Below are positions 19,733 through 61,899 of a stretch of DNA of 64,000 nucleotides, piece after piece. The stretch is from assembly GCF_003018255.1 (NCBI RefSeq), contig NZ_CP027440.1; one strand, given 5' to 3'. The stretch is from Escherichia coli. Its GTDB lineage: Bacteria; Pseudomonadota; Gammaproteobacteria; Enterobacterales; Enterobacteriaceae. The translations under genes and the position numbers were made by a program. Every line of letters starts with the position of its first letter. Position 1 is the first letter of the stretch. The notes beneath the pieces are model-generated. The model had not been told where the DNA came from and ran no database searches. It worked only from the letters and a program-made list of their open reading frames with translations.

Positions 19733-21021
19733 AGGGAAAGATCACGCAACGCTGCTTTTTTGTACTAAATAATTCGCATTTTATGTTTAAAAATTGAGAT
19801 ATTCCTCATTACCTGAAGCTGTTTTTTATTGCTTATACATGATCAAATACTCCTTACATAATTAAGGAGAACAAAATGGAACTTAAAAAATTGATGGAGC
19901 ATATTTCTATTATCCCCGATTACAGACAAGCCTGGAAAGTGGAACATAAATTGTCGGATATTCTACTGTTGACTATTTGTGCCGTTATTTCTGGTGCAGA
20001 AGGCTGGGAAGATATAGAGGATTTTGGGGAAACACATCTCGATTTTTTGAAGCAATATGGTGATTTTGAAAATGGTATTCCTGTTCACGATACCATTGCC
20101 AGAGTTGTATCCTGTATCAGTCCTGCAAAATTTCACGAGTGCTTTATTAACTGGATGCGTGACTGCCATTCTTCAGATGATAAAGACGTTATTGCAATTG
20201 ATGGAAAAACGCTCCGGCATTCTTATGACAAGAGTCGCCGCAGGGGAGCGATTCATGTCATTAGTGCGTTCTCAACAATGCACAGTCTGGTCATCGGACA
20301 GATCAGGACGGATGAGAAATCCAATGAGATCACAGCTATCCATGAACTTCTTAACATGTTGGATATTAAAGGAAAAATTATCACAACTGATGCGATGGGT
20401 TGCCAGAAAGATATCGCAGAGAAGATACAAAAACAGGGCGGTGATTATTTATTCGCTGTAAAAGGAAATCAGGGGCGGCTTAATAAAGCCTTTGAGGAAA
20501 AATTCCCACTGAAAGAATTAAATAATCCAGAGCATGACAGTTACGCAATTAGTGAAAAGAGTCACGGCAGAGAAGAAATCCGTCTTCACATTGTTTGCGA
20601 TGTCCCTGATGAACTTATTGATTTCATGTTTGAATGGAAAGGTCTGAAGAAATTATGCGTGGCAGTCTCCTTTCGGTCAATAATAGCAGAACAAAAGAAA
20701 GAGCCAGAAATGACGGTCAGATATTATATCAGTTCTGCTGATTTAACCGCAGAGAAGTTCGCCACAGCAATCCGAAACCACTGGCACGTGGAGAATAAGC
20801 TGCACTGGCGTCTGGACGTGGTAATGAATGAAGACGACTGCAAAATAAGAAGAGGAAATGCAGCAGAATTATTTTCAGGGATACGGCACATCGCTATTAA
20901 TATTTTAACGAATGATAATGTATTCAAGGCAGGGTTAAGACGTAAGATGCGAAAAGCAGCCATGGACAGAAACTACCTGGCGTCAGTCCTTGCTGGGAGC
21001 GGGCTTTCGTAATCTTTCCCT
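19733..21021 (+). mobile_element. H-repeat (ISAs1-family) element, copy 3
   Basis: 1289 bp, same inverted repeats; nearly identical to copy 1. Confidence 0.8.
19876..21012 (+). CDS. H-repeat-associated transposase (ISAs1 family), intact
   Basis: 378 aa intact ORF. Confidence 0.8.
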
Positions 21022-21050
21022 GGGGGAGCGGGCTTTCGTAGTCTTACCCT
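21022..21050 (+). repeat. 29-bp degenerate remnant of an H-repeat right end
   Basis: GGGGGAGCGGGCTTTCGTAGTCTTACCCT, a decayed copy of the element terminus. Confidence 0.5.
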
Positions 21051-25899: not shown

Positions 25900-26667
25900 A
25901 TGTGCGAATTGCTCGGGATGAGCGCCAACGTCCCTACCGATATCTGCTTTAGTTTCACCGGACTTGTACAGCGTGGTGGTGGAACCGGGCCACATAAAGA
26001 TGGCTGGGGCATTACCTTTTACGAAGGTAAAGGCTGTCGCACATTTAAAGATCCGCAACCCAGCTTTAATTCCCCCATCGCCAAACTTGTCCAGGACTAC
26101 CCGATAAAATCCTGTTCGGTGGTGGCTCATATTCGCCAGGCTAATCGGGGCGAGGTGGCGCTGGAAAATACTCACCCGTTTACCCGCGAGTTATGGGGGC
26201 GTAACTGGACTTATGCCCATAATGGACAACTGACGGGCTACAAATCACTGGAAACCGGCAACTTCCGCCCGGTCGGTGAAACCGATAGCGAAAAAGCCTT
26301 TTGCTGGCTCCTGCATAAATTAACGCAGCGTTACCCGCGCACACCGGGCAACATGGCGGCAGTGTTTAAATATATCGCCTCACTGGCGGATGAACTGCGG
26401 CAGAAGGGCGTTTTCAACATGCTGCTTTCTGACGGGCGCTATGTAATGGCGTATTGCTCGACTAATTTACACTGGATCACCCGCCGCGCGCCGTTTGGCG
26501 TGGCAACGTTGCTGGATCAGGATGTGGAAATCGACTTCAGCTCGCAGACCACACCGAATGATGTGGTCACGGTGATTGCGACACAGCCGCTGACGGGCAA
26601 TGAAACCTGGCAAAAGATTATGCCAGGTGAATGGCGCTTATTTTGCCTCGGGGAGCGTGTAGTTTGA
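25900..26667 (+). CDS. yafJ: class II glutamine amidotransferase-like protein
   Basis: 255 aa starting MCELLGM (N-terminal Cys after Met), GGAGG RBS. Confidence 0.8.
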
Positions 26668-27378
26668 TGCCAGTTGTGGCTGCACAACTTCGTGGCTTAA
26701 CGGCTTGCTGACCACGTAACGGCCATTGACCACAGAAACGGTCGGTGGCTTACGGGTTTGCTCAAAGTAGTCGTAGCCTGGCTTCAGTTGCTCCCAGAAG
26801 TCCTTAAAGTTGGAATATTTATGGCGCTTCATATTGGCGTCGGTCATACGGAACGGGTAAATACTCACTTGCACGCTCGGCTGACCAAACACCAGCGCAC
26901 CAGTAACGAACTGGAAGATCTCATCAATACCCTGATTGGTCATCGCGTAGCAGCCGATGGAAACACAATCGCCGTGAATCATCAGGTATTTCCCTTCATA
27001 ACCATGCGCACGGTCATAGGCGTTTGGGAATCCAATATTAATCGCTTTGTAGTAACGGCTGTCTGGTTTTAACTGATTACGCTGGACGCTATAAAACCCT
27101 TCCGGGCTTTTGAAATCGCCCTGACGCTGTTTTGGCCCTAAGCCGCCGGAATATTTACAGATTTTATAGCTGTCGAGCAGTTGATATTGCTCGCCCATTT
27201 TGACGTAGAGATCGAGCGTACGTTCTTCCTTGAAGATCTGGATGTAGACAGGGGATCCCATCAACTGCTGCTTATACTCTTTGCTCACTGGCGTGGTCGA
27301 GCTACTGCTGCCCAGCAAACCGGCAAACGAAACGCACGGGATCAACAACATCGCAAGAATTAATGCGATTTTACGCAT
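26638..27378 (-). CDS. yafK: L,D-transpeptidase family periplasmic protein
   Basis: 246 aa with signal peptide; YkuD-like core. Confidence 0.8.
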
Positions 27379-27680
27379 ACTGCTTATTCCTTGATAAAAC
27401 GGTTACACACGCCAGGACGGCAAAATGAATCCCAAATCGGAATAGTCTGGATTTGGAAGGCTCACATTATCACCAAAAGAGTTTTACGCAAGCCTGTCGG
27501 CGCAGGGTTTACAAATTTAGCACAGGGGCAGTTTTCAAGAGTCCGAAAAGCGCATGGATTGTAGATTTATTTCTTATTTCCTAAGATTATGAAACCGCAA
27601 TAGTAATATGCAAATAAGCAATTAATAATCCCGTTTACTCCTCCGGTCTTTTAAAATTCTCACCTTCATTCAGCTGGTTT

Positions 27681-28439
27681 ATGTCCTTCATGTCTTCGTT
27701 CTTGCACGGCAGATTTCTGCATCCAGGCGTGTTTTCGTTATGCGTTTTGCTCCCTTTACTCGCCAGCGCCACCACATCACATATCTCTTTCAGCTACGCC
27801 GCCCGCCAGCGGATGCAAAACCGTGCGCGTTTATTAAAACAGTACCAAACCCATCTGAAAAAGCAGGCCAGCTATATTGTGGAAGGCAATGCCAAAAGCA
27901 GAAGGGCGCTGCGCCAGCATAATCGGGAGCAGATAAAACAGCATCCAGAATGGTTTCCTGCGCCGCTCAAGGCGAGTGACAGACGCTGGCAGGCGCTGGC
28001 GGAGAACAACCATTTCTTAAGCAGCGACCATCTACACAACATCACCGAAGTGGCGATTCACCGCATGGAGCAGCAGCTTGGTAAGCCTTACGTCTGGGGC
28101 GGCACGCGGCCCGATCAAGGCTTCGACTGTAGCGGGTTGGTTTTTTATGCCTACAACAAGATCCTCGAGGCGAAGCTCCCGCGTACGGCCAATGAGATGT
28201 ATCACTACCATCGGGCAACGATTGTGGCGAATAACGACCTGCGCCGGGGAGATTTGCTGTTTTTCCATATTCACAGCCGTGAGATTGCCGATCATATGGG
28301 CGTGTATCTGGGAGACGGGCAATTTATCGAATCGCCACGCACGGGGGAAACCATACGGGTAAGCCGGTTAGCCGAACCTTTCTGGCAGGACCACTTTTTG
28401 GGCGCGCGCAGGATTTTGACGGAAGAGACGATTTTGTAG
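27681..28439 (+). CDS. yafL: NlpC/P60-family peptidoglycan endopeptidase
   Basis: 252 aa; signal peptide; conserved Cys (FDCSGLV) and His of NlpC/P60. Confidence 0.8.
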   Translation: MSFMSSFLHGRFLHPGVFSLCVLLPLLASATTSHISFSYAARQRMQNRARLLKQYQTHLKKQASYIVEGNAKSRRALRQHNREQIKQHPEWFPAPLKASDRRWQALAENNHFLSSDHLHNITEVAIHRMEQQLGKPYVWGGTRPDQGFDCSGLVFYAYNKILEAKLPRTANEMYHYHRATIVANNDLRRGDLLFFHIHSREIADHMGVYLGDGQFIESPRTGETIRVSRLAEPFWQDHFLGARRILTEETIL

Positions 28440-29329: not shown

Positions 29330-31799
<2,470 letters not shown>

Positions 31800-31835
31800 A
31801 TGCTGAATCTTTACGCATTTCTCAAACCCTGAAAT

Positions 31836-31855
31836 CACTGTATACTTTACCAGTG
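31836..31855 (+). promoter_or_regulatory. LexA (SOS) box of dinB
   Basis: CACTGTATACTTTACCAGTG, a CTGT-N8-ACAG palindrome about 15 bp upstream of the dinB start. Confidence 0.75.
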
Positions 31856-31869
31856 TTGAGAGGTGAGCA

Positions 31870-32925
31870 ATGCGTAAAATCATTCATGTGGATATGGACT
31901 GCTTTTTCGCAGCGGTGGAGATGCGCGATAATCCCGCCCTGCGCGATATCCCTATTGCTATTGGCGGCAGCCGCGAACGACGGGGGGTGATCAGCACCGC
32001 CAATTATCCCGCGCGTAAATTTGGCGTACGTAGCGCTATGCCGACAGGGATGGCGCTCAAATTATGCCCGCATCTCACCTTGCTTCCGGGGCGCTTTGAC
32101 GCCTACAAAGAAGCCTCAAATCATATCCGTGAAATCTTCTCGCGCTACACCTCGCGTATTGAACCGTTGTCACTGGATGAAGCCTATCTCGATGTCACTG
32201 ATAGCGTCCATTGCCACGGTTCTGCGACCCTCATCGCCCAGGAAATCCGCCAGACGATCTTCAACGAGCTGCAACTGACGGCATCTGCGGGCGTGGCACC
32301 AGTAAAGTTTCTCGCCAAAATCGCCTCCGACATGAATAAACCCAACGGTCAGTTTGTGATTACGCCGGCAGAAGTTCCGGCATTTCTGCAAACCTTACCG
32401 CTGGCAAAAATTCCCGGCGTCGGCAAAGTCTCGGCGGCAAAACTGGAAGCGATGGGGCTGCGGACCTGCGGTGATGTGCAAAAGTGTGATCTGGTGATTC
32501 TGCTTAAACGCTTTGGCAAATTTGGCCGCATTTTGTGGGAGCGTAGTCAGGGGATTGACGAGCGCGACGTTAACAGTGAACGGTTGCGAAAATCCGTCGG
32601 CGTGGAACGCACGATGGCGGAAGATATTCATCACTGGTCTGAATGTGAAGCGATTATCGAGCGGCTGTATCCTGAACTTGAACGCCGTCTGGCAAAGGTG
32701 AAACCTGATTTACTGATCGCCCGTCAGGGAGTGAAATTAAAGTTCGACGATTTTCAGCAAACTACTCAGGAGCACGTCTGGCCACGGCTGAATAAAGCTG
32801 ATCTAATCGCCACTGCGCGTAAAACCTGGGATGAACGCCGCGGCGGGCGCGGTGTGCGACTGGTGGGGCTGCATGTGACGTTACTTGACCCGCAAATGGA
32901 AAGACAACTGGTGTTGGGATTATGA
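31870..32925 (+). CDS. dinB: DNA polymerase IV (Y-family translesion polymerase)
   Basis: 351 aa, [22 protein letters not shown]... canonical DinB N-terminus. Confidence 0.95.
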
Positions 32926-33374
32926 ATAACATACAAATAAGAGACTATCAGCCTGGCGATTTTCAGCAACTATGCGCTATTTTCCTTAGAGCGGTTACGA
33001 TGACCGCCAGTCAGCATTATTCACCACAACAAATTGCCGCCTGGGCGCAGAATGACGAATCTCGCTGGAAGGAGAAACTCGCGAAATCACAAGTGCGGGT
33101 TGCAGTCATTAATGCAAAACTGGTCGGCTTTATTACCTGCGTTGAACACTATATCGATATGTTATTTGTTGACCCTGAATACACCCGCCGCGGGGTTGCC
33201 AGCGCCTTGTTAAAACCTTTGATTAAGTCTGAATCCGAACTTACGGTGGACGCCAGCATAACCGCAAAACCCTTTTTTGAACGTTATGGTTTTCAGACAG
33301 TTAAGCAGCAGCACGTTGAATGCAGGGGAGCGTGGTTTACTAATTTTTCTATGCGATATAAACCGCAACATTAA
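32922..33374 (+). CDS. yafP: GNAT-family acetyltransferase
   Basis: 150 aa; start overlaps the dinB stop (ATGA). Confidence 0.8.
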
Positions 33375-33691
33375 ATCCAGCTTGCAATGAAAATAACACC
33401 CGCCTGGTATGTGCGCGTTTTCTTATTCCACAAACTGCAAGGAGGTAAATCATGACAAATCCTTTATCAATGACTCTTTGCAGACCTTTCCAGGATTAAT
33501 TCTTTTTTTCTTGCCCTGGATTCGTCTGCCATTTCCTGATTTTTATATTTATATACTCTAAATAATTCGAGTTGCAGGAAGGCGACAAGCGAGTGAATCC
33601 CCAGGAGCTTACTAAAGTAAGTGACTGGGGTGAACGAACGCGGTCGCAGTACATGCAACTTGAAGTATGACGAGTATAAATGGAATGATAC

Positions 33692-33946
33692 ATGGGCAAA
33701 TATATTCGTCCCTTATCCGATGCGGTATTTACCATCGCATCTGATGACCTGTGGATCGAGAGTTTAGCGATCCAACAATTACACACCACGGCAAATTTAC
33801 CCAACATGCAGCGCGTTGTGGGGATGCCAGATTTACATCCCGGACGCGGCTACCCGATTGGCGCAGCGTTCTTCTCTGTTGGTCGTTTTTACCCGGCAAG
33901 ACGTCGCGGTAACGGTGCTGGAAACAGAAACGGGCCGCTACTCTGA
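33692..33946 (+). pseudogene. ykfJ: RtcB-like RNA ligase fragment
   Basis: Short ORF with the RtcB motif [14 protein letters not shown], far shorter than an intact RtcB; neighbouring frames carry further fragments. Confidence 0.55.
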
Positions 33947-33988
33947 CACGCTGCGTTCGGCGCTGATTTCTCTGGATGGCGATAATGC

Positions 33989-34246
33989 ATGGGCATTAAG
34001 CGAAAGTTGGTGCGGCACTATTCAGTGTATTTGTCCGAGTCCGTATCGGCCTCATCATGGGCGCAAAAACTGGTTTCTGGGCATGCTAACAAGCGGCTGG
34101 CGCGATTGCTGATTGCCTGGAAGCTGGAACAACAGCAACAGGAAAATAGCGCGGCGCTGAAATCGCAGCGGCGAATGTTCCATCACCAGATTGAACGTGG
34201 CAACCCGCGACGAACGTTCACAGGGATGGCTTTTATCGAAGGATAA
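33989..34246 (+). pseudogene. prfH: peptide chain release factor homolog fragment
   Basis: 85-aa fragment in the position of the K-12 prfH pseudogene next to ykfJ. Confidence 0.45.
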
Positions 34247-34302
34247 TGAAGGATGAAACTGCCGGAAGGCGATTAAACGCCATCCGGCAGCAAATCAAAT
34301 AA

Positions 34303-42139: not shown

Positions 42140-42215
42140 GCCGATATAGCTCAGTTGGTAGAGCAGCGCATTCGTAATGCGAAGGTCGGAGGTTCGACTC
42201 CTCTTATCGGCACCA
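42140..42215 (+). tRNA. thrW: tRNA-Thr (anticodon CGU)
   Basis: 76-nt sequence GCCGATATAGCTCAGTTGGTAGAGCAGCGCATTCGTAATGCG…CACCA with cloverleaf features, anticodon loop TTCGTAA, 3' CCA. Confidence 0.9.
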
Positions 42216-42835
42216 TTTAAATCAATAAGTTACACATCACTAATACCTTCCTTATTTTTTATTGGGACAGATTTGGGACCGATGGGTTCAGGATCGAATC
42301 TATTTACCGTGCGTGTTCGGTAAGGTGATTAGGTGCGAGGTGAGCATATCGACGAACCATTTCGAGAGTTTCCCATCCGCTCATTTTTAAGTGCAAGCAG
42401 GGAAACACCGGACCAAACCAATCAGCTGTTCGAAAATGGCAAGCGGATTAATATGCCATGGCGGCTTTGAGCCGCACGCATGGGGTGTGGCAAGCCTGAT
42501 GGATGTTACTGTGCTTGTGGTGGCGTCTTTGCTGGTCTGGTTGTTGGTTAATCGCGAAAATCATTATGCCAGAGGAATACCACAGGACGTTCAGGTTTTG
42601 CATAAAAAAGCCCACCATTAAGGTGGGCAAAAGGAATGATTTATATTCTCTGAGAGAAACATTACATTTCTCCTTGTCACTTCTAACATGAAAATATGGA
42701 GAAATAATGGAGCTTATATTAATTGGCGATTAGGTAACCATGTGGTTATACAAAACAATACAGTTCTTTACATTTGCCTTGTTTTATGAATACTCCTAAA
42801 GAGGTGTATAACATAATGGTACAAGCAGGGTAGAT

Positions 42836-43450
42836 ATGAATATATTTGAACAAACTCCACCAAACCGCAGACGTTATGGTCTTGCTGCATTCATTGGGCT
42901 GATTGCTGGCGTTGTTTCCGCATTTGTTAAGTGGGGGGCAGAAGTTCCATTGCCACCACGTAGTCCGGTTGATATGTTTAATGCAGCGTGTGGTCCGGAA
43001 TCATTAATCAGGGCTGCAGGCCAAATTGATTGCTCCCGTAACTTTCTCAATCCTCCGTACATTTTTCTTCGGGATTGGTTGGGACTGACAGATCCAAATT
43101 CGGCTGTTTATACCTTCGCCGGGCATGTCTTTAACTGGGTTGGTGTAACGCACATAATCTTTTCGATAGTTTTTGCCGTTGGTTACTGTGTGGTCGCCGA
43201 AGTATTTCCGAAAATTAAACTTTGGCAGGGCTTACTGGCAGGTGCTTTAGCGCAACTTTTTGTTCATATGATTTCATTCCCTCTCATGGGACTTACGCCA
43301 CCTCTCTTTGATCTTCCGTGGTATGAGAATGTCTCTGAAATTTTTGGACATTTAGTCTGGTTCTGGTCTATTGAAATTATTCGCAGAGATTTACGAAACA
43401 GAATTACCCATGAGCCAGATCCTGAGATCCCTTTAGGCTCAAATAGATAA
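42836..43450 (+). CDS. yagU: inner membrane protein (DUF1440 family)
   Basis: 204 aa with several hydrophobic segments; position matches K-12 yagU. Confidence 0.75.
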
Positions 43451-43698
43451 TGCTTTGAATGATAAAAATGGCGCAAATATAGCGCCATTTTTATAGGTTA
43501 AAAACGTTGCTTTTCATATTCTGATGCGGACAGTCAGTGATCATATCGCGCTACTTCAGGATGATGTAGATCCGGAGAACGCTACAGAAGAAGAGGCATT
43601 GTTGCTGGAAAATGGAAGAAGTTTCAGGTTTTGTTGTCCCTGAAAAACGAAGCCCCGCTATTACAGCTGGCGGGGCAATGCAATTAATTATTGTATAT

Positions 43699-44028
43699 TT
43701 ATAACGGTGTTAGCCCGTATTTAGCTCTTGCACGATTGCAAGCCTCATTGACTTCTCCGTTCTCACCAGACATGGCGAATTCTCTGCATGTGGACGATCG
43801 ATTTTCATATATCGTGCAGCAGGCATTTTTGCCCGGTGTTCCTGCAAGGGCAATACATCGGGGATTTTTCTGATTAGTACCGCTCATGCATCGGTGAAAA
43901 GGGGATATTTGTTCAGTGAGCCTGGCGGGAATGGTACCGCCAGCATCGTCAGCTTCGGCCCAGTAAAAAGAGACGCGGAAAAATGCACAACAGGCACCAC
44001 ACGTCATGCATGGATTCAGATTGCTCAT
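43699..44028 (-). CDS. ykgJ: Cys-rich ferredoxin-like protein
   Basis: 109 aa with CxxCxxCC and further Cys motifs. Confidence 0.75.
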
Positions 44029-44340
44029 AATTCACCAGTACAGCTATAAATCGTAAAGAGAACTGCGGTACGTCGTATGCAGGGATGTATCGCGGTTGGC
44101 TGGTGTACTTTCGATAGTGTGAGTATTGAATGATTTCCAGCCGTTACCGATTTTACGTCCTAATTAGTGAAGAAACCACTCGTTAGCAGGCCGCCTGGTA
44201 CCTTTCCGTGTCTCCTGAACACTGTGGTGTGCATATGAGAAAGCTCATCGTTACAGGTGACATTGACGATCGCTTCCACATCATTTAAACGATTTTTGAG
44301 TCTCTGAGGTGGAATTCTTCCCTCGTCCGATGGATAAGTC

Positions 44341-45051
44341 TTAGTCCGCCGAAGGGGGCTTAGCCGGACAGGAATCGCTAATCTTAATGAATTTGTCGTT
44401 ATAGACCAGATAATGATTCCCCGGCTGACGTAACTCAGGCTGATGAACCACGTCTCCCGGACGTAGATACCAGGCATCGCCTTCCTCTTCGGTCGAATCA
44501 CATCCTGGTTTAATCAGTAGCTTAAACCACGTGTTGCCGGTGTTACTTACCGTTCCGGTCACCTGATCGAAGGACCATTTAAACTGAACCTGACGTGGTC
44601 GTACTACCAGAATGGTATCCATCACCACCACCGGCTCCGTGCTGACCTCACCGCCGGTTGGGCTGCGTTTTGTCAGGTTACGAGTGGGGACCTCGCGAAA
44701 TGAGACCCGGTAGTAGCGCTCGCGGTTATCCCGTGGACCATGATAGTAAAATTTAAAATACTCGCTCTCACCAGTCTGCAACGCCAGCTGGCGGGGGGCG
44801 AAAAGTAGTTCACCATCCACCGGTCGGGTGCGCAATTCACTGCTGCCCGGGCTATCAATAGCACTGATGGCAATACGGTATATCCGCGCGCTTTTGTTGT
44901 TATTCACGACACGTTTGCTGACAAAGTCAGTCTCGGACGGCAGTGAAAAAGTCAGATTGCCGACCGAAATCGCCTGTGTCAAAGGTGCCGCCAGCATACA
45001 GACCACTGTCAGCAGGGCCTTAGTTAATGTTACGCCACGTCGCCTGAACAT
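44341..45051 (-). CDS. ecpE: E. coli common pilus chaperone EcpE
   Basis: About 236 aa from internal MFRRRG start with signal peptide; last gene of ecp operon. Confidence 0.75.
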
Positions 45052-46663
45052 GAATCTCTCCTGAAGCGCTGACTTCGCCAAACCAGCCGTTATCATCTAC
45101 CGTACGCAGAGAAATGGCGTTATCCATTGGAATCGAAAATTTGACTGTGGTCTTATCCATCTGCCCCACTTCGCCAGAGATATCAGTCCACGGTGTGGTC
45201 AACCACAGCGCATCGGTCATATCCCGCCAGCTATCATCGCACCCGGCATCGTAGGTTTTTGTAGCTCCGTTGCGGGTAATAAAGGAAAGCGTCGCCGGGA
45301 ACGGTACTTTCGCCTTACCGTCATCGGAGCTGAAGACACAATAGGAGCGCCCGCCAATCACCTGCGCGGGTCCGGTCACCTTGATCAGCACTTCGTCGGC
45401 AGCTGTTTTACCGCTGGTGGTTACGATATAGCCGAAATCGAGTGCCGACTCGCCGCTGCCAACATATCCCTCCCGCGACGGTGTCTGAGTATATTCATCG
45501 GAGATAATACTGATGCTGAAATCACGGGGTTTGATAATCAGCGTGTTGGAGGTAGAAAATTCATACCAGCCAGACTCCGGTGATGTGGTGTTCTGAAAGC
45601 GAAAGTTGAATAGATCTTTGGTGTTGATATCGCTGATCCCGAGGTTCACCATCTGTTTAAAGAAGTTGCTCGAGAAGAAAACATAGATCGAGTCTGCGCT
45701 CTTCATCTCGTTGAAGGTGTAGTAATAGGCAGTATTGCTCACCGGTTTCCATGAACTGCCATTCAGACTGAACTGCATATCGTACGCCCCGACGGCCGAG
45801 GCTAACGACGAGTTGGCGATCGCCGGGAATATATGGATTGAGGTGTTGCTGAGTCCGTTTGTTTGCAGGGTATAGTTAACCATCTTACAACTTAATCCTG
45901 AACGGCTGCCGATGGTTTGCGTCCGGCAGTCGGCGTTCCCTTCGCCCAGAGTCGGTACTCCGTCGCTGTTGATAAATACTTCCGCCAGCGAGTGGGTATT
46001 TATCAACCGCAGATTTGCTGCTTTCGTATGGGTGACGTTGCGAACATACCAGTTGCCGGAGGCCTGATCCTTACAGCGTGCGCCGCTGCTGGCGTCATAG
46101 TTCACAGAGGTCTGGCAGGCATTGATGGTCATTGTAAAGCTGCTGCCGACGGGCATTTGTTGCAGATACTGGTAAAACGCGTCTGACAACATGCCGTGCA
46201 TCCATTTCGCGCCGCCGCTGGTCACCGTCGCGCCATAAAATCCACTGGCGTCGGTGGTTTGCGGCAGGATAAGACTGGTGGTCATATTACACCCTGCGTA
46301 CCAGTTGATGCAGCGCAAGCCAGTTAAAGGAGATGAAACTGGTGAATTTTCCAGCCACATATCAAACTTCCAGTTGGTATAAAGGCCGGTGTTGTAACCG
46401 TTATCAATGTAGCCGAGGCTTTGCTGATAGATGGTTCCTGAACCATTGTATTTTAAACCGGTCCAGCGGTTGGCACCGGTCAGGCGCGGATCCAGCGCCC
46501 CGCCAGGAGTGACGAAAAAGTTGTCGTCTGAGTTGTTTTCGACAAACACAAACTCGCGTGCCGGAGCATCCGCCCAGGTTGTTTTGCTCACTGCCGCTCT
46601 GAGCGCGGTTGCAGGCCAGATTAGCGCAAAGATTATCATCGCTATCAGTAGGTTAACTCTCAT
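45020..46663 (-). CDS. ecpD: E. coli common pilus tip adhesin EcpD
   Basis: 547 aa with signal peptide. Confidence 0.85.
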
Positions 46664-49178
46664 TCTCTTCTCCTGTCTGCGTCACCGCCGCCCACGATGA
46701 GAGGCCGCTGCAGACCACATCACCGACCCAGACGGCACCGCGCGCCTGGTTGAGTTCCAGTGCCACTTCGCAGGTTTTATTGCCACTGTAGCGAAAATCG
46801 ATAGTGGGGTATTTCTTATCCACGTCCATGACAAACTCGCCGTTTTCATCGGTTCGGGTTCGGCCGATATGGTTGTTAATCCGTGCGTTAGCCAGCAGTG
46901 TGCCGTCTTCCGCACGGATACGACCGGAGACGGTAACCATCTGCTTCACCTCTGGCTCAATGACAGCGACATTGCCTGGATAGAGAGTCAGATGACTTTT
47001 GCGACCGCTGACGATATCGTAACTGTCGAGTGAGTTTTTGCTGTTCTGCAACTCCACCTCATATCTTCCATAGGGAGAGAGCGGGAGATAGTTACGCTTG
47101 CCGTTAAGCGGGAAAATCCGCCCGTTGATTTTGGCGCTGATCTGACCATCGTTCTCCAGGCCAGTGTCGAATATCACCCCAGCGTTGCCATCGGTCCGCC
47201 CGCTGGCAGCGATGTTTTTACCCTGCCAGCCGACGCTGCCGTTGGCGGTCAAATTAGTATTGATGTAGCCGTCCGCCGCGCTATTGACGTTCAGCGTTCC
47301 GCTGGCGTAACGAGCGTCGAACTGTGCATACGCCCCACCGCTGAGGGTTTTGTCATCACCGGTATCGCCGGAGATGGCTCGTGACAGATTGGCACCAACA
47401 GTGCGAATGGTTCCTTCATCAAACTGTTTGCGTGCTGACAGGTTTGCCATGGTGTAGCCGTTTTGATGGGTCATCCCTGCGCTAAACCAGTTGCCCAGTG
47501 GTAGCGAGAGATCGAGAGCGATATATTTCCCTGTATTGGCGCTGCTGTCGCCGTTGTTATAGCGCTGAATACCGGCCCGCAGGCCAAGCGAACCAAAGGT
47601 ACCGCTGTAGACACTTTGATAGTAATCTGCCGTGTAATAATGGCTGTTGTAGCGGCGGTCATCATTGTAGCTGATGCTGAACGTACCCAGCTTCGACCAC
47701 AGTGAGTTCAGGTTGAGTGTGCCGCCGATTGCACGGTTGTCGGCATCGCTACGTCGCAATTGATTGCCAATGCGGGTTTTTTCCTGGTTAACCCACAGCG
47801 AACTGAAGCCTCCAGGTAGAGTGGCGCTGATGCTGGCGATGTTGCTCCATGAGCTGTCACTGGCCAGCATGTTTTGCAGGTTAACGTTGATCGCCCCCCC
47901 AAGCGGCAGCGTCAGACGGGTTTCACCCACCGCCTGATTATCGTATCCATATCCCGTTGCCGCCCAGCTAAACGTACTCAGTGAGCCGGAGGTCGAGGCA
48001 CCTGCCAGCCAACTCTCTTTGGCTGGTCGCGTCTTTTTCCCGTTTTCCGACCAGCGATCCATATGAAAGCTACCGCCCCATATCTGCCACGCCAGCGGTG
48101 CACCGACGCCACGTCCCCGGCTAAACAGCTTATTGACCCGCTGGGTGCGTTTGCTGATCACGCGACCGTTAACGATTACCTCAACTTCCACATCGTAAAT
48201 ACCGTACGGTAGACCCCGGGTATCCACTTCATGATTGCCCATGGTGAAGTTCTGAACGCTTAGTAGCCGCCCATCACGGGTGAGATGTACTTCGCCCGCC
48301 GCCGGTAAAAAGGCGATCACTGGCGTGGCCGACTGGCTGCTGTCGAAGATGGTGGAGCTGGCCTGGTTTCCCCAGGAAAGGCCGTAAATCTTCCCTGCTG
48401 AAATGGCGGTCATCGGCCCTAAGGACTGCAAGTTCCAGGTGTCGAGCATTCCACCGGCAAATCGGTGACCAGCAAAATCGCGTTCATACATCGCTTTATA
48501 TAATTCACTGTCCTGTTGACCGCTACCAATCCCGTACAGTGAGCCGTCGAGCACCACGTGATGTTCGCGCAGCGCAGTAACGTTATTCAGCGACAGATAG
48601 CTGGAGGTGTTGCTCCCGCCGTTACGCAACTGGTTGTTATAGACGCCGAAGTTATAGCTCAGATTACTGCTGAGGGTGTTAACACTGGACTGCCCGATGT
48701 CTTCGCTACGTGAGCGTAGTACGGTGCCCAGCGCTTCGCGCTTGACCACCAGCTGCAGCAGCAGTTGGCGCAAGCTGAGATCCAACTGCGCGTTGTCAGT
48801 CAGGGGGATGGTAAGGGCCTCATTGAACGGGGCGTTGGCCAGAGTCATCAGCTGCTGTCGAGTTTGTTCGCTGACACTGGCGTTATCTTCACTCTCTTCC
48901 AGCTGTATTTTTCGGATGCGTAACTGTCCATCATCCAACCAGATAAAAGCGCTGCCGATTCGCTGATCGTCCTGGCGACCCTGGCTACCGGCGAGATGAA
49001 TATAAAGCGGGACGCTCATGCCGTCCTGGAGCGCCTGACTGAAGGCCTGCGGAATAATCACCCCACCTATTTGCTGCGCACTTATGTCAGCAGCGCTGGC
49101 ATCGGGCTGAACGAACAAAAAGACCATGCCGAAGGCAAACTGGGCTTTCAGTCCTGGGGAGAACCGTCGTAAAGGCAT
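46653..49178 (-). CDS. ecpC: E. coli common pilus usher EcpC
   Basis: 841 aa outer-membrane usher-like protein. Confidence 0.85.
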
Positions 49179-49203
49179 TGTCGTTATCCATCTGCACAGC
49201 TAT

Positions 49204-49872
49204 CTATTTCACGGGAATGAACTTATCACCCTGCCAAAGTGCAACCCGTCCTTTGTTATCCGCCGTGTCCACGCGGGTAAAACGACGCGACTTGCCCGGC
49301 ATCAGGTAGTAATTCTCTTTACACTCCTTACCATTGGCGGCTTTCAGGCAGGGGCCGTAGGCGAGGATCCGCAGCGTCGCATTTCCTGTATTTGTCAGGG
49401 AGCCGTTGGCGTACTGAAAGTGGTAGTTTGCCTGGCGGGGTGCGACGACCAGAATGGTGCCGATGCGGGCGGAAGCAGTGGCCACAGCGCTGCGGTTGGC
49501 ATTATCGCGCTGCGCATCACTGAGGGCCTGATCAAACCAGACAATGCGGTAGTAGCGCTCTTTTTCATCTGCTGGTCCCTTATAGAAGAAGCGGATCACT
49601 TCGCTGGCTTGGGCGGGTAGCAGCAAGCTGGCGGGAGTGAGTAGCAACTCATCCGGCTTGTCCATTGCGATAACCTGCCCGTCGTCAAGCGGTGAAGAGA
49701 GCCGTTCGAGACGGATATTGATGAGGCGGCCACTGTCGGTACTGTTTTGGATCGTTTTGCTTAGCGTGCTGCTGTCACTGTTCATAAACGATGATATATC
49801 GCCGACATCCAGCGCCTGGGCCGGTGATATTCCGGAAAACAGCAGAGCGAGAGGCAGAAGGTGCTTTTTCAT
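49204..49872 (-). CDS. ecpB: E. coli common pilus chaperone EcpB
   Basis: 222 aa from [20 protein letters not shown] signal peptide. Confidence 0.8.
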
Positions 49873-49928
49873 AACAATTCCGTCCAGGAATAAAGCAGGG
49901 GGGTACCCCTGCTGGTACATCAGAGAGA

Positions 49929-50516
49929 TTAACTGGTCCAGGTAGCGTCGAACTGTACGCTAACGTCGCCGCTCCAGATGCCTTCCGGTAGAGTGCTGTA
50001 ATCGGTTACTGCGGTGGTACCATTGGTGGTGCCGCTGATGATGGAGAAAGTGAAACCATCCTGTGCGGTGGTACGATTGCTGGCATTGTAACCGTTAGCC
50101 AGTGGGCTAAGGTTGCCGCCCAGTACGCCGTTGGCGGTATCGATCATCACGGTATCGCCAGTTTTTTCGACTGCCGCGCCGTTATAATCCACGCCCACAT
50201 TCAGTGTGGAACCTGAGGTATCCAACTGGGTTAAGGTGTTGGTGATAAGGCGTGAGGTCAGTTTAAAGGCGGTAGCCGTTGAGTCACCCTCGATAGCCAC
50301 GTCAAATAGACCTTTTTGTGAGTTAAAACCTTTAATGCCTTCGGCATACTGGAACGCCAGGCTACCGAGTGGCGTCACAACCAGCTTACTGGTGGTGTCT
50401 TTTTTGGCTGTTGCTGACCAGGTCGCTACAGCCTGAGCTGTTACGTCAGCAGCCTGCGCTACACCTGTACCGGTAAACACCGTTACCAGAGCTATTGCCA
50501 GAACCTTTTTTTTCAT
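49929..50516 (-). CDS. ecpA: E. coli common pilus major subunit EcpA (Mat fimbrillin)
   Basis: 195 aa, signal peptide [22 protein letters not shown]. Confidence 0.9.
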
Positions 50517-50589
50517 TGCTTTTCTTCCCGAGTTGAATTGAGGACATGAAGTCCCGGTGAGTCATTTTTAAAACTAACTTGCCTGGAGT

Positions 50590-51201
<612 letters not shown>

Positions 51202-51584
51202 TTACAGGTACATTCAGTTTCTTTAGTAAATCGGAAGTAAATAAGATACGTAGCACATATCAATATAGGTTAAACGAGATTAAGTTTTAATTATTTCGAT
51301 TAGGTTTAAATTTATGTTTTTTTCCTGATGAGTGTCAATATGTGAACAGAAAATGAATTCCATGGTTAAGTCAATATTTACAAAAAATGAAAATATTGCT
51401 TTTTTGATAAGAAGAAAAAGACATTCAGTTTCATAAGGTTATTGGCAATATAACGTTCAATTCTTACTTGCATTTTATATTAGCCAGGAACTTTGCCCTG
51501 AGGTGTTAGGAATAGTCTTAATGTGTTGTGTAATGGACTAGTAAAAAAACAAGTTTAAATGATAAGAAATGGAATATAAAACTA

Positions 51585-51809
51585 TCATAAGTCATAATTA
51601 AAGATGATTTGCCAATCAGTAAGGTGTTTTAATGGATTAACATGCCGCACAAAATGGTTGTGGGTGTTCATCCCAATAAGTGATGAAAAATTAAACAGGT
51701 GTAAGTACGTCATCTGTCCGGTAAGCCCCCCAAGAGCCAAATTAAGTGAAGTTAAACGAAGACTGCCAGTTGTCACAGGAACGATGGCCTCTTTGCCAGG
51801 GCACTGCAT
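51585..51809 (-). CDS. hypothetical small protein (possibly ykgL)
   Basis: 74-aa ORF in the ecpR-ykgO spacer; no recognisable features. Confidence 0.2.
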   Translation of the reverse strand: MQCPGKEAIVPVTTGSLRLTSLNLALGGLTGQMTYLHLFNFSSLIGMNTHNHFVRHVNPLKHLTDWQIIFNYDL

Positions 51810-52215
51810 TCAGTCATCTGTACGCGTTACTCTAACTGGCACTCGAACGTCGGCGATGGGGTTACCGATGGATCTGGCCGTTCCTGTGGCGTAAACGTTT
51901 TTATGTCAGTACCAACAGATTTACCACATTTATCATCTTAACAGTTTGAGTGTAAATGCAGGCTGCGTCGCAAAGGGAGGAAACTGAGTGGCGTGTTCAG
52001 TCTAAAATAGAGTTGATGCCAGCATACAGGGCGCAGCTGGTCAACAAGTCAACATTAATATAATGGAATATTCGGAGAGAAACGTCAGGCAGTTGACCTT
52101 AAATTAACAGGAAGATACATCCCCAGGAAAATTAATGCTGGTGTAATAAATACACCAACATTAATCCGGTATGATTATTAATCAGACAAATATCGTTAAT
52201 TCGTCGAATTTTGAA

Positions 52216-52356
52216 TCAACGTTTTTTCTTACGACCCTGAACGGCCTTAAAACGTGGATTAGATTTACAAATCACATACAGCCGTCCTTTTCGCTTCACA
52301 ATCTGACAGTCTGGATGGCGTTCTTTTGCGGTACGCAGAGAGTTAAGGACTTTCAT
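52216..52356 (-). CDS. ykgO: ribosomal protein L36 paralog (zinc-independent)
   Basis: 46 aa [46 protein letters not shown] translated by hand; start overlaps ykgM stop (ATGA). Confidence 0.85.
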
Positions 52357-52622
52357 CATGCCCCCTTTTTCGTGCTAACAAAACGACCAAAACGTTGGGT
52401 GAACCGTGCAACATTTCCTTCTGATGCCACTGTTCTCAGCTTCCCTGTATAGAACGGGTGCGATTTCGAAGAGACATCAATTGTTACGTACGGATACGTT
52501 ACGCCATCCAGCTCAATCTCACGGTCTGTTTTGATAGTCGAGCCGATTTTAAAGTACTCATCAACGCTGGTGTCGTGGAACACCACAGTACGATACTCAG
52601 GATGGATATTGGGTTTCATCAT
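52356..52622 (-). CDS. ykgM: ribosomal protein L31 paralog (type B, zinc-independent)
   Basis: 88 aa [24 protein letters not shown]…, lacks the Cys zinc ribbon. Confidence 0.9.
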
Positions 52623-52628
52623 TTTTAC

Positions 52629-52649
52629 CTGTTATGTTATAACATAACC
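52629..52649 (-). promoter_or_regulatory. Zur box upstream of ykgM-ykgO
   Basis: Palindrome GTTATGTTATAACATAAC immediately upstream of the ykgM RBS, matching the Zur consensus core TGTTATA-TATAACA. Confidence 0.65.
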
Positions 52650-52983
52650 GTAAAGATACATGCTCATCCGGATCATTTCAACACCCAATCACTGTGACTA
52701 TTTGTGGGATGTGGAATTTCCGCAACGGGGAAGTCTGGCATTGTTAGCAGCCATTGGCGACGCTCCCATAAACGCCTGGATGAGTGATTGATGATGGTTT
52801 CGCTGAGAGTATGGATTTTTCGAGAATGGAGGCTATCTCCACTTTACTGGCCGATGATTTATTGCAGCATGATTGATTACCTGACAATGTGTATTCCTCT
52901 CCCACGGATATAATAATTACTTACAAAAAAGGGAGAGGATGCATATTTTAAATATCACTGAAGTGAACAGTTTATTGCCGTTA

Positions 52984-53085
52984 TTAATAGAAATGGAGAA
53001 ATAAATAGGCGTATTCTACAATTGCGACAAAAACAACGATATTAATCAGTTTATGACTGATTTGCTGTACTTTATTCTCTTTCAT
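52984..53085 (-). CDS. ykgR: small hydrophobic membrane protein YkgR
   Basis: 33 aa MKENKVQQISHKLINIVVFVAIVEYAYLFLHFY found by hand translation; GAGGAAG RBS 6 nt upstream. Confidence 0.6.
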   Translation of the reverse strand: MKENKVQQISHKLINIVVFVAIVEYAYLFLHFY

Positions 53086-53565
53086 TGGTACTTCCTCGCT
53101 TTAAAAAAGAGTGCACTTCGTAAGTGCCCTTATATAAATAACGAGTTTGGTCAACCAATTTTTTGACATGTATCACAAATTTGAATAGATGTATTACATC
53201 GGCTATCTTTTATTGCCCCAACGTCATTGATATATGTCGCCTGAAATCAGTTACGGGAATGAGTCTGATCTCAAGACTGGCCCAGTCCTGGCGTTGATTG
53301 GCGCTGAGGAGCATATCGCATCTCATCGTAACGTCGTATCTCCTGGGGTGTTATACAAGATATCGTTGTAGGTAACCAGGGAGAGGAATTGAGTCTATTA
53401 AACCGTCAACTATGCCGGATACATACTGGATTACACTGCAGGCACGCCTTACGAGAGAACGTGCCGCAGTGACGGGTTAATTATCTGAAAGAATTTGCGA
53501 GGCTGTATCGGTTACTCATTGATTTGATAGTTTTACTCTCGGGAGAGTAATCGATATTTAATCCA

Positions 53566-53808
53566 TTAACGGAAACCAGCCAGTTCCTTTCGATGTCTGA
53601 ATTTCCTTGGCGTGACATAGGTATATCCTGTAATTACTAAACCAATATTTTGTGAGCGACGTTTATAATATTCGAGTTCTTGCTCAGAGATGGTTCCATC
53701 AGGATTAGCTGACCAGGTCGTCATAGGAGCCATAACGATACGATTACATGGCTTTATTTTTTCTGTCAGCATAAAAGGAGAAAACAGTGATAGGTGTTTA
53801 TTTGTCAT
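53566..53808 (-). pseudogene. Old Yellow Enzyme (NADH:flavin oxidoreductase) N-terminal fragment
   Basis: 80-aa ORF with OYE-like N-terminus (…NRIVMAPMT…) that terminates after about 60 conserved residues. Confidence 0.5.
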
Positions 53809-54101
53809 GACAATACCTCAAATGTTTATCTGATTTTGATGTGTATATTTAAACTGGTTAGTTGTTACCAGCTTTGGAACCAAGATTTTTGGCTTTGTTT
53901 TTATTTATAATTACTGTTAGTGCTTTTATTGATTTTATGGTGGAGAAAAGAGTAAAAATAGAAAGTTAATGATGTGTGTCAGAATATCGGTAAGAAGAAT
54001 GGCACAATCGTGAGGGTACGTTTATTCATAATAAATCTCCTGAAAGTTTAGAATTATTTTCGATACAGCCAGATTATCATTGTTACTAATAATGTGGTTA
54101 A

Positions 54102-56974
<2,873 letters not shown>

Positions 56975-57524
56975 TTATCGTTCATGAGAAGCATAACGTA
57001 AAGGGAAGAGCTCGATTAGACGGCAGGATTTGTCAGGGGTTATGAACAAAATTCATAAATCTGTTTGAGGGTTGAGATTAGTCGTGCAAGTTCGATATCC
57101 CCGGAATTTACAGTCCGATGAATAAAAATGAATGTCCATAAAAAATATATTGGTTTATCCCAGCGTATATACTTACTTCGACGTACTCCCAATAGCAGTT
57201 AATTAAAGACGGGTCATTATTATTCACTCTGAATAATGAATTATTCACTGCCCGCAGAGTAAGAAATATAACTTAAGTATCTATTTAATGACTTGCACAA
57301 AAAGCTAAATTTTTACCCATAAATAAAAATATAATCCCGCGCCCAACCACCTGATGAGTGGCTACAGACACTGGATATATTAGGTGGCGGTGTACTTTCT
57401 TACATAAAGGTATTTCCTTTTCTGTGGAAAAGGAAACCGGGAAATCCCCGGTTTTTCTGACAAGCAGACGCCATTATTTGTGTCTGCCTATGTTCGTTAA
57501 TTCGTTCATCAGGAAATTATCTCA

Positions 57525-60500
57525 ATGTCACGTTATAAAACAGACAATAAACAGCCACGATTTCGTTATTCAGTTCTGGCCCGCTGCGTGGCGTGGGCAA
57601 ATATCTCTGTTCAGGTTCTTTTTCCACTCGCAGTCACCTTTACGCCAGTAATGGCAGCACGTGCGCAGCATGCGGTTCAGCCACGGTTGAGCATGGAAAA
57701 TACTACGGTAACTGCTGATAATAACGTGGAGAAAAATGTCGCGTCGCTTGCCGCTAATGCCGGGACATTTTTAAGCAGTCAGCCAGATAGCGATGCGACA
57801 CGTAACTTTATTACCGGAATGGCCACCGCTAAAGCTAACCAGGAAATTCAGGAGTGGCTCGGGAAATACGGTACTGCGCGCGTCAAACTGAATGTCGATA
57901 AAGATTTCTCGCTGAAGGATTCTTCGCTGGAAATGCTTTATCCGATTTATGATACACCGACAAATATGTTGTTCACTCAGGGGGCAATACATCGTACCGA
58001 CGATCGTACTCAGTCAAATATTGGTTTTGGCTGGCGTCATTTTTCAGAAAATGACTGGATGGCGGGGGTGAATACTTTTATCGATCATGATTTATCCCGT
58101 AGTCATACCCGCATTGGTGTTGGTGCGGAATACTGGCGTGATTATTTGAAACTGAGCGCCAATGGTTATATCCGGGCTTCTGGCTGGAAAAAATCACCGG
58201 ATGTTGAGGATTATCAGGAACGCCCGGCGAATGGCTGGGATATTCGTGCTGAGGGCTATTTACCTGCCTGGCCGCAGCTTGGCGCAAGCCTGATGTATGA
58301 GCAGTATTATGGTGATGAAGTCGGGCTGTTTGGTAAAGATAAACGCCAGAAAGACCCGCATGCTATTTCTGCCGAGGTAACCTATACACCAGTGCCTCTT
58401 CTGACACTGAGCGCCGGGCATAAGCAGGGCAAGAGTGGTGAGAATGACACTCGCTTTGGCCTGGAAGTTAATTATCGGATTGGCGAACCTCTGGAAAAAC
58501 AACTCGATACAGACAGTATTCGCGAGCGTCGAATGCTGGCAGGCAGCCGCTATGACCTGGTTGAGCGTAATAACAATATCGTTCTTGAGTATCGCAAATC
58601 TGAAGTGATCCGTATTGCTCTGCCTGAGCGTATTGAAGGCAAGGGCGGCCAGACGGTTTCCCTGGGGCTTGTGGTCAGCAAAGCAACTCACGGTCTGAAA
58701 AATGTGCAATGGGAAGCGCCGTCTTTGCTGGCCGCAGGCGGAAAAATTACGGGGCAGGGCAATCAGTGGCAAGTGACGCTCCCGGCTTATCAGGCAGGCA
58801 AAGACAATTATTATGCGGTTTCAGCGATTGCCTACGATAACAAAGGCAATGCCTCGAAACGTGTGCAGACAGAAGTGGTTATTAGCGGAGCTGGTATGAG
58901 CGCCGATCGTACGGCGTTAACGCTTGACGGTCAGAGCCGTATTCAAATGCTTGCTAACGGTAATGAGCAAAAGCCGCTGGTGCTGTCTCTGCGCGACGCC
59001 GAGGGTCAGCCAGTCACGGGCATGAAAGATCAGATCAAGACTGAACTAACTTTCAAACCGGCTGGAAATATTGTGACTCGTTCTCTGAAGGCCACTAAAT
59101 CACAGGCAAAGCCAACACTGGGTGAGTTCACCGAAACTGAAGCAGGGGTGTATCAGTCTGTCTTTACTACCGGAACGCAGTCAGGTGAGGCAACGATTAC
59201 TGTTAGCGTTGATGGCATGAGCAAAACCGTCACTGCAGAACTGCGGGCCACGATGATGGATGTGGCAAACTCCACCCTGAGCGCTAACGAGCCGTCAGGT
59301 GACGTGGTTGCTGATGGTCAGCAAGCCTACACGCTGACGCTGACTGCGGTGGACTCCGAGGGTAATCCGGTGACGGGAGAAGCCAGCCGCCTGCGACTTG
59401 TTCCGCAAGACACTAATGGTGTTACCGTTGGTGCCATTTCGGAAATAAAACCAGGGGTTTACAGCGCCACGGTTTCTTCGACCCGTGCCGGAAACGTTGT
59501 TGTGCGTGCCTTCAGCGAGCAGTATCAGCTGGGCACATTACAACAAACGCTGAAGTTTGTTGCCGGGCCGCTTGATGCAGCACATTCGTCCATCACCCTG
59601 AATCCTGATAAACCGGTGGTCGGCGGTACAGTTACGGCAATCTGGACGGCAAAAGATGCCAATGACAACCCTGTAACAGGCCTCAATCCGGATGCACCGT
59701 CATTAGCGGGTGCCGCTGCTGTAGGTTCTACGGCATCGGGCTGGACAAATAATGGTGATGGGACGTGGACTGCGCAAATTACTCTCGGCTCTACGGCGGG
59801 TGAATTAGAAGTTATGCCGAAGCTAAATGGACAGGATGCGGCAGCAAACGCGGCAAAAGTAACCGTGGTGGCTGATGCATTATCTTCAAACCAGTCGAAA
59901 GTCTCTGTCGCAGAAGATCACGTAAAAGCCGGTGAAAGCACAACCGTAACGCTGGTGGCGAAAGATGCGCATGGCAACGCTATCAGTGGTCTTTCGTTGT
60001 CGGCAAGTTTGACGGGGACCGCCTCTGAAGGGGCGACCGTTTCCAGTTGGACCGAAAAAGGTGACGGTTCCTATGTTGCTACGTTAACTACAGGCGGAAA
60101 GACGGGCGAGCTTCGTGTCATGCCGCTCTTCAACGGCCAGCCTGCAGCCACCGAAGCCGCGCAGCTGACTGTTATTGCCGGAGAGATGTCATCAGCGAAC
60201 TCTACGCTTGTTGCGGACAATAAAACTCCAACGGTTAAAACGACGACGGAACTCACCTTCACCGTGAAGGATGCGTACGGGAATCCGGTCACCGGGCTGA
60301 AGCCAGATGCACCAGTGTTTAGTGGTGCCGCCAGCACGGGGAGTGAGCGTCCTTCAGTAGGAAACTGGACAGAGAAAGGTAATGGGGTCTACGTGTCGAC
60401 CTTAACGCTGGGATCTGCCGCGGGTCAGTTGTCTGTGATGCCGCGAGTGAACGGCCAAAATGCCGTTGCTCAGCCACTGGTGCTGAATGTTGCAGGTGAC

Positions 60501-61775: not shown

Positions 61776-61899
61776 AAACGACGATGTAATAAATAATAAT
61801 GGCGTTGACATGCGCAGCGCCATTATTTACTGAATACCTACCCTGGTACCGATTAGACGGTGGCAGGGTAGGGTAAATCTTATGTGATGGATTTACAGG

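Follow-up and report, generated by a model that had tools for sequence, protein, structure and literature searches.

A two-gene dinB-yafP operon in Escherichia coli, probably left by deletion of yafN-yafO between 7-bp direct repeats

The dinB operon in the stretch of E. coli chromosome analysed here, which is 64 kb long and referred to throughout as the window, consists of dinB and yafP only, with the stop codon of the first gene overlapping the start codon of the second. We consider it highly probable that this LexA-controlled operon represents the two-gene allele known from the uropathogenic strain CFT073, that it arose from an older four-gene operon by a deletion between two copies of the repeat ATTATGA, and that YafP is likely to be made from it by translational re-initiation. 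The allele is real, ordinary and has been in print since 2011, when a two-gene dinB-yafP operon with an ATGA overlap was described by Gutierrez, Elez, Clermont, Denamur and Matic (Nucleic Acids Res 2011, 39:4192; PMC3105422), who found dinB and yafP only in 40% of 98 sequenced E. coli and in 50% of ECOR strains and who had already proposed a deletion as the origin of the two-gene form. What can be added to that work is the 7-bp repeat, an outgroup genus that supports an old four-gene form, the recurrence of the change on several haplotypes and the uniformity of the yafN-yafO cassette (hereafter yafNO) within Escherichia. The practical meaning for the genome of the window is small, the relevance lying instead in the upkeep and loss of chromosomal toxin-antitoxin genes.

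The dinB locus and its surroundings

The gene order across the window is yafV-ivy-fadE-gmhA-yafJ-dpaA-yafL-rayT-lfhA'-lafU'-dinB-yafP-(ykfJ/prfH remnants)-pepD-gpt-frsA-crl-phoE-proBA-thrW. The genes of the operon were identified from their open reading frames and by tblastn; dinB (31870 to 32925, plus strand) encodes DNA polymerase IV of 351 amino acids, which is 99.7% identical to K-12 DinB over 351 residues, and its reading frame closes with GGA TTA TGA. The second gene, yafP (32922 to 33374, plus strand), encodes a GNAT family N-acetyltransferase of 150 amino acids that is 91% identical to K-12 YafP and that matches the NCBIfam model NF007338 over positions 1-150 of 150 with 319.5 bits, against a cutoff of 146. 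The two genes differ in their G+C content, that of yafP (43.3%) being low like that of the cassette (41.9%) and that of dinB being 54.2%, and the YafP protein has evolved much faster than DinB (mean dN 0.031 against 0.005).

Upstream of dinB a consensus scan revealed a promoter-like pair of -35 and -10 hexamers, TTCTCA and TATACT, separated by a 16-nt spacer (31819 to 31846, plus strand). The -10 hexamer is overlapped by a LexA (SOS) box, CACTGTATACTTTACCAGTG (31836 to 31855, plus strand), which matches CTGT-N9-CAG at 31838-31853 and which we take to be the established SOS operator of dinB. Over the 60 nt that precede the dinB ATG, SOS box included, the window and K-12 are identical, and the same box was given as the dinB SOS operator in PMC3105422. 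A terminator scan of the plus strand found no intrinsic terminator 3' of yafP. With an intact dinB first, an intact yafP second, an ATGA overlap between them and a LexA box and promoter upstream, the locus belongs on sequence grounds to the two-gene dinB-yafP allele of the CFT073 type.

The surroundings of the operon combine features shared with K-12 and features that are not. Remnants of the lateral flagellar (Flag-2) cluster, lfhA and lafU (29330-31799), lie directly upstream of dinB as they do in K-12, and the interval between yafP and pepD (33400-34250) holds mere remnants of an rtcB-like ykfJ and of prfH, again as in K-12; in the same interval several other E. coli (e.g. loci L008, L010 and L015-L019) carry an intact 1,140-nt RtcB-family gene. 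At positions 1-9000, upstream of yafV, there are type VI secretion genes (e.g. the contractile sheath large subunit at 5394-6869), of which K-12 has none there. A VgrG gene (9104-11212) and an Rhs core gene (11279-15487) are followed, just downstream, by three successive copies of a 1.29-kb ISAs1-family transposase element that are 98-99% identical (16017-17308, 17769-19061 and 19733-21024), the first of them with an ORF shortened to 302 amino acids from 378. At the other end of the window the tRNA-Thr gene thrW (CGU, 42140-42215) is followed by genes that are not K-12-like (42800-62800), among them that for an inverse autotransporter (intimin/invasin-like) of 1,416 amino acids (57525-61775), and the region after thrW is likely to be a tRNA-associated island.

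The junction and the missing toxin-antitoxin genes

The two genes meet at ...CTGGTGTTGGGATTATGAATAAC..., within which the ATGA at 32922-32925 supplies both the TGA that stops dinB (32923-32925) and the ATG that starts yafP (32922-32924). An earlier sequence-only reading of this DNA had pointed out the overlap and had concluded that it leaves no room for yafN-yafO; the ORFs and the sequence agree with this, as the 4-nt overlap leaves zero space for the two genes and no homologue of either lies there. Alignment to K-12 and a junction table of 19 loci further identify ATTATGA at 32919-32925 (plus strand) as one copy of the 7-bp unit that brackets yafNO in four-gene alleles. The nearest complete genome, that of JNE23-011 (99.4% identical over 12 kb), has the same 4-nt overlap in its PGAP annotation, where the upstream gene is annotated as dinB, and likewise has no dinJ-yafQ.

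Two other possibilities were considered and ruled out. An assembly artefact is excluded by the presence of the same junction in 2,567 complete genomes. The window might also have come from a cryptic Escherichia clade, as its dinB-yafP is only ~97% identical to that of most E. coli; this idea was dropped because its pepD is 98.0% identical to that of K-12, a usual value within E. coli, and it is just the dinB-yafP region that varies more than the genes around it.

The same reading had proposed a search with YafN and YafO and had noted that dinJ-yafQ is missing too; for the window both absences were borne out. When K-12 YafN, YafO, DinJ and YafQ were compared with the whole 64 kb by tblastn only noise was returned (best E about 1-3, at most 21 bits), and neither a YafN-YafO type II system (a YafO of PF13957 adjacent to a PhD/YefM-type YafN) nor a DinJ-YafQ type II system between dpaA and yafL was found in the window. 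The search for toxin-antitoxin genes covers the 64-kb window of the genome; among the 2,847 E. coli genomes with yafNO, the median number of places at which it occurs per genome is one. Within that scope the SOS response of the window's strain would proceed without the ribosome-dependent mRNA interferase YafO, and also without YafQ.

The second of these absences differs in kind from the first. The gap between dpaA (26638-27378) and yafL (27681-28439) is 302 bp long here, as opposed to 906 bp in K-12; homology to K-12 stops after 27518, and the N-terminus of yafL is unlike that of K-12, the match beginning at residue 9, position 27714 (tblastn). The site of dinJ-yafQ therefore carries a substitution by about 195 bp of unrelated sequence, an unstranded filler at 27519-27713 that constitutes the empty allele, and not a plain deletion.

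Neither absence is rare. With 5,426 complete E. coli genomes as the denominator, the uninterrupted junction was found in 2,567 (47.3%) using a 100-bp query centred on it, and the K-12 yafNO segment in 2,847; the dinB/yafP flanks are present in 5,414 genomes, and 5,414 less 2,847 is exactly 2,567. The corresponding figures at the other site are 3,340 genomes with dinJ-yafQ and 2,084 with the filler, which sum to 5,424 and describe a clean two-allele, complementary polymorphism. The two-gene junction is an ordinary E. coli allele and the absence of dinJ-yafQ is a common allele too. Surveys of clinical isolates routinely score both toxin-antitoxin pairs as present or absent, for example one of 88 UTI isolates, 55 of which had yafNO and 23 dinJ-yafQ (PMC11059956).

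The 7-bp repeat and the proposed deletion

Alignment of the window with K-12 shows that 759 bp are lacking from the window, comprising the yafN operator region, yafN and yafO. In K-12 dinB ends with GGGATTATGA and yafP begins with TATATTATGA, the unit common to both being the 7-bp ATTATGA, and the segment from dinB to yafP in the four-gene form is 755 bp. The detailed comparison took in the window, K-12, 13 further E. coli and 4 representatives of GTDB species, 19 loci in all. ATTATGA is present at both ends of the segment in all eight four-gene loci as well as in the three-gene locus of Escherichia sp. E1V33, and the junction GGGATTATGAAYAAC is identical in 10 of the 10 two-gene loci. Removing one ATTATGA and the intervening 752 bp from the four-gene form produces exactly the junction of the window, and this modelled deletion leaves the dinB stop and the yafP start intact. 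The repeat at the predicted deletion end-points is the 7-bp ATTATGA, and not a 4-bp unit as in PMC3105422.

The proposed course of events is as follows. The ancestral four-gene Escherichia operon would have carried ATTATGA across the dinB stop and again across the yafP start, and the loss of one copy together with 752 bp (759 bp in total), likely through replication slippage or another form of short-homology recombination, would leave a single ATTATGA. In the product the last codons of dinB and its TGA would be kept, as would the ATG of yafP, with the two genes overlapping by ATGA. The lineage of the window may have undergone its own deletion, or it may have received an already deleted allele by homologous recombination. 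A short direct repeat alone gives no direction to the change, as an insertion with target duplication leaves the same pattern.

Which form is older

The direction can be approached through relatives outside E. coli. Contigs of Pseudocitrobacter were reached through a YafO relative with 85% identity, an assignment that rests on an exact YafP-like protein (AGB79531.1, strain FGI 57) and on the naming of members of the YafO cluster as Pseudocitrobacter. The order on these contigs is nqrF-nqrM-dinB-yafN-yafO-GNAT-pepD-gpt-frsA, and the stretch that directly follows the dinB stop there, TGTATACTACAATGTACA (TGTATACTA...), shows homology with its E. coli counterpart. Third-position synonymous differences between Pseudocitrobacter and K-12 are 45% for dinB, 42% for yafN and 48% for yafO; since the cassette is as diverged as dinB and is syntenic with it, the cassette appears to be as old as dinB at this site. 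The pair of ATTATGA repeats is absent from Pseudocitrobacter, where dinB ends with GGATTGTGA and the GNAT gene starts with AAATCATGAAC.

The four-gene form is also found in E. whittamii, and four genes were reported for E. fergusonii (PMC3105422). Apart from an unrelated GNAT of a planctomycete, outgroup sampling with exact YafP peptides as seeds yielded 4 loci, all from Escherichia, with none from E. fergusonii, E. albertii, Salmonella or Citrobacter. Two of the loci have a damaged yafO. Escherichia sp. E1V33 (L002, 3625-4000) has a third state, dinB-yafN-yafP, in which the toxin has been lost and the antitoxin kept; a 379-bp deletion has left no more than a 10-codon stub of its yafO (MRVFKTKLIL*), which is joined to yafP at a TTAT microhomology, an instance of short-repeat deletion within the cassette. 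In a GTDB representative labelled E. coli SCPM-O-B-8794 (L004, 3593-3991) yafO has a premature stop at codon 119 (…NNQMQ*IGK…), which would be another sign of a toxin gene decaying in place. Taken together these comparisons point to the four-gene form as ancestral, with the cassette subsequently decaying or being deleted, and favour this over an insertion in K-12.

The reverse history, in which the two-gene form is ancestral here and yafNO is a mobile cassette that was inserted in K-12-like strains with duplication of ATTATGA, would account directly for the 7-bp direct repeat that flanks the yafNO segment. It would also fit the difference in G+C content between the cassette and dinB, although yafP is low too, and the fact that the cassettes resemble one another much more closely than the flanks do, a contrast that extends to the comparison of E. 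coli with E. whittamii. Relatives of the pair are moreover found elsewhere: Klebsiella-type YafNO, at 69% identity, occurs in unrelated island contexts, and YafO-family genes at 32-37% identity are carried on 128 plasmids of Klebsiella, Enterobacter and Pseudomonas. Against this stand the four-gene synteny in Pseudocitrobacter, with a cassette as diverged as dinB, and the four-gene form in E. whittamii and E. fergusonii. A precise insertion would furthermore have to have happened separately on three or more flank haplotypes and would leave the states of partial deletion and nonsense decay in E1V33 and L004 to be explained. E. coli-type yafNO lies at the dinB locus in every cassette locus examined, has no associated integrase or transposase and lacks the marks of a mobile element, which would be its own recombinase and varied sites or plasmids. 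On plasmids it occurs, at 95% identity or more, in only 12 records (8 at ≥99% and 4 at 95-99%); the two of the 12 that are listed come from laboratory E. coli, measure 214 kb and 242 kb and are presumably F-primes. We therefore consider an insertion improbable.

One deletion or many

The two-gene alleles of E. coli do not form a group of their own. Neighbour-joining trees of both dinB and yafP have two-gene and four-gene alleles interleaved, and a table of variable sites over 250 nt on each side of the junction contains no junction-adjacent variants common to the two-gene alleles. The nearest neighbour of each two-gene allele is a cassette-bearing allele from the same haplotype family, and both states occur together in three or more such families. 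AHB2 (two-gene) differs from BH100N (four-gene) at 5 of 953 flank positions, and from 07_3636, which like AHB2 is two-gene, at 68 of 953. As two-gene and four-gene alleles that are near-identical in their flanks occur on at least three haplotypes, the change appears to have recurred, and recurrent deletion at the same repeat is the simplest reading of these sequences; recurrent deletion was also inferred from the ECOR tree in PMC3105422. Very short conversion tracts may provide an alternative to recurrence.

Such tracts would be needed if the deletion had happened once and the two-gene allele had then spread through E. coli by homologous recombination. The identical junction in all two-gene alleles, both in the 19-locus table and in PMC3105422, is what a single origin would produce, and the incongruence of the dinB and yafP trees indicates that recombination at the locus is frequent. 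The two-gene alleles nevertheless differ from one another close to the junction, for example at yafP positions 22 and 36 and at dinB positions -12 and -34, which would confine the conversion tracts to well under 100 bp on each side, and the contrast of 5 differences within a family with 68 between two-gene alleles also speaks for separate events. We regard a single origin as unlikely, if somewhat less so than an insertion of the cassette.

The uniformity of the cassette within Escherichia

A further observation concerns the cassette itself. Over 21 pairs of four-gene alleles the mean dS is 0.208 for dinB, 0.089 for yafN, 0.053 for yafO and 0.155 for yafP. Within Escherichia the third-position synonymous differences amount to 2-6% in the cassette against 12-17% in dinB and yafP combined (Fisher p 1.5e-9 to 0.03), and for pepD the difference between K-12 and E. 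whittamii is 14.8%. Cassette synonymous divergence is in this way 3-7 times below that of dinB, yafP and pepD (Escherichia loci L001, L005, L009, L011, L013 and L016), and the drop in divergence is fairly sharp at the borders of the cassette. An intrinsically low rate of synonymous change in yafNO, through composition or constraint, was ruled out, since yafNO is as diverged as dinB in the comparison of K-12 with Pseudocitrobacter and the uniformity can therefore not come from the mutation rate of the genes.

This pattern, from few loci, suggests that the Escherichia cassettes share a more recent ancestor than their flanks and that homologous recombination spread them again laterally, E. coli and E. 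whittamii being among the partners; a uniform cassette is not what would be expected had the four-gene form been inherited in a purely vertical way. It may be the one new nuance in the present data. A possible history, which we put forward tentatively and to which we give slightly less than an even chance, is that yafNO at the dinB locus is old, has repeatedly been lost through the ATTATGA deletion and has been regained laterally, in a cycle of loss and regain and not through few vertical losses as proposed in PMC3105422. If true, such a cycle would be the behaviour expected of an addictive, selfish module.

The sequence-only reading had judged the two absences consistent with both toxin-antitoxin pairs behaving as mobile accessory cassettes. 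That they are variable and accessory is borne out by their distribution, yafNO being present in 2,847 and dinJ-yafQ in 3,340 of the 5,426 genomes, whilst the part of the claim that implies mobile insertion is not, as the evidence points to loss. For yafNO the low divergence within Escherichia does fit lateral exchange; the synteny in Pseudocitrobacter, the ATTATGA repeats and the mere 12 plasmid records argue against calling it mobile.

Expression of yafP from the overlapping genes

Given the sequence identity with K-12, transcription of the two-gene operon would start from the unchanged dinB promoter with its SOS box. Ribosomes that terminate at the dinB UGA would most likely re-initiate at the overlapping AUG and so produce YafP, whose output, with yafNO gone, would be wholly dependent on the transcription and translation of dinB. 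A point against this is that yafP lacks a properly spaced Shine-Dalgarno sequence, with just GGTG (-12 to -9) and GGGA (-6 to -3) ahead of it. Coupled re-initiation in E. coli operons commonly uses ATGA overlaps, and the layout of dinB and yafP conforms to this arrangement. That the gene is expressed from such an operon has been shown for CFT073, in which a YafP-YFP fusion was made in stationary phase and after mitomycin C (PMC3105422).

The authors of that study saw no Shine-Dalgarno sequence either and proposed that ribosomes reach yafP through a programmed frameshift out of the dinB frame instead of by termination and re-initiation, a proposal with which the out-of-frame position of yafP relative to dinB is in keeping. 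The gene nonetheless keeps its own ATG and the N-terminus MNNIQIR that it also has as a cistron of its own in the four-gene operons, and a slippery heptamer is absent before the stop (TTGGGATTATGA). With the overlap also being of the kind used for coupled re-initiation, frameshifting seems to us very improbable, more so than any of the alternatives weighed above.

Comparison with known operons

The closest known counterpart of the operon in the window is that of CFT073 and about half of the ECOR strains (PMC3105422), which likewise has the ATGA overlap, is without yafN and yafO and has the dinB promoter and SOS box upstream. CFT073 is known here from that publication, in which the repeat is given as ATGA where the unit found here is ATTATGA. 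The window differs from the CFT073 type in its flanking haplotype; it has a synonymous T at dinB -12 (TTG vs CTG, Leu), and its yafP allele has 93.6-93.8% nucleotide identity to the BH100N-group alleles of SaT040, 2A and AHB2. The likeness to the four-gene operon of K-12 extends over the promoter and LexA box, DinB (99.7%) and YafP (91%) and the neighbours lfhA', lafU', the ykfJ/prfH remnants, pepD, gpt and frsA, the difference being the 759 bp with the yafN operator region, yafN and yafO that the window is without.

The three-gene variant of E1V33 resembles the window in that toxin-coding DNA appears to have been lost from the same locus by a short-repeat deletion, and differs from it in that yafO alone is deleted (379 bp), so that the antitoxin gene and the left copy of ATTATGA remain. 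Finally, trpE-trpD is an example of a translationally coupled overlapping gene pair. In pairs of this type the upstream stop overlaps the downstream start just as it does in dinB-yafP, and by analogy dinB and yafP would be coupled in the same manner.
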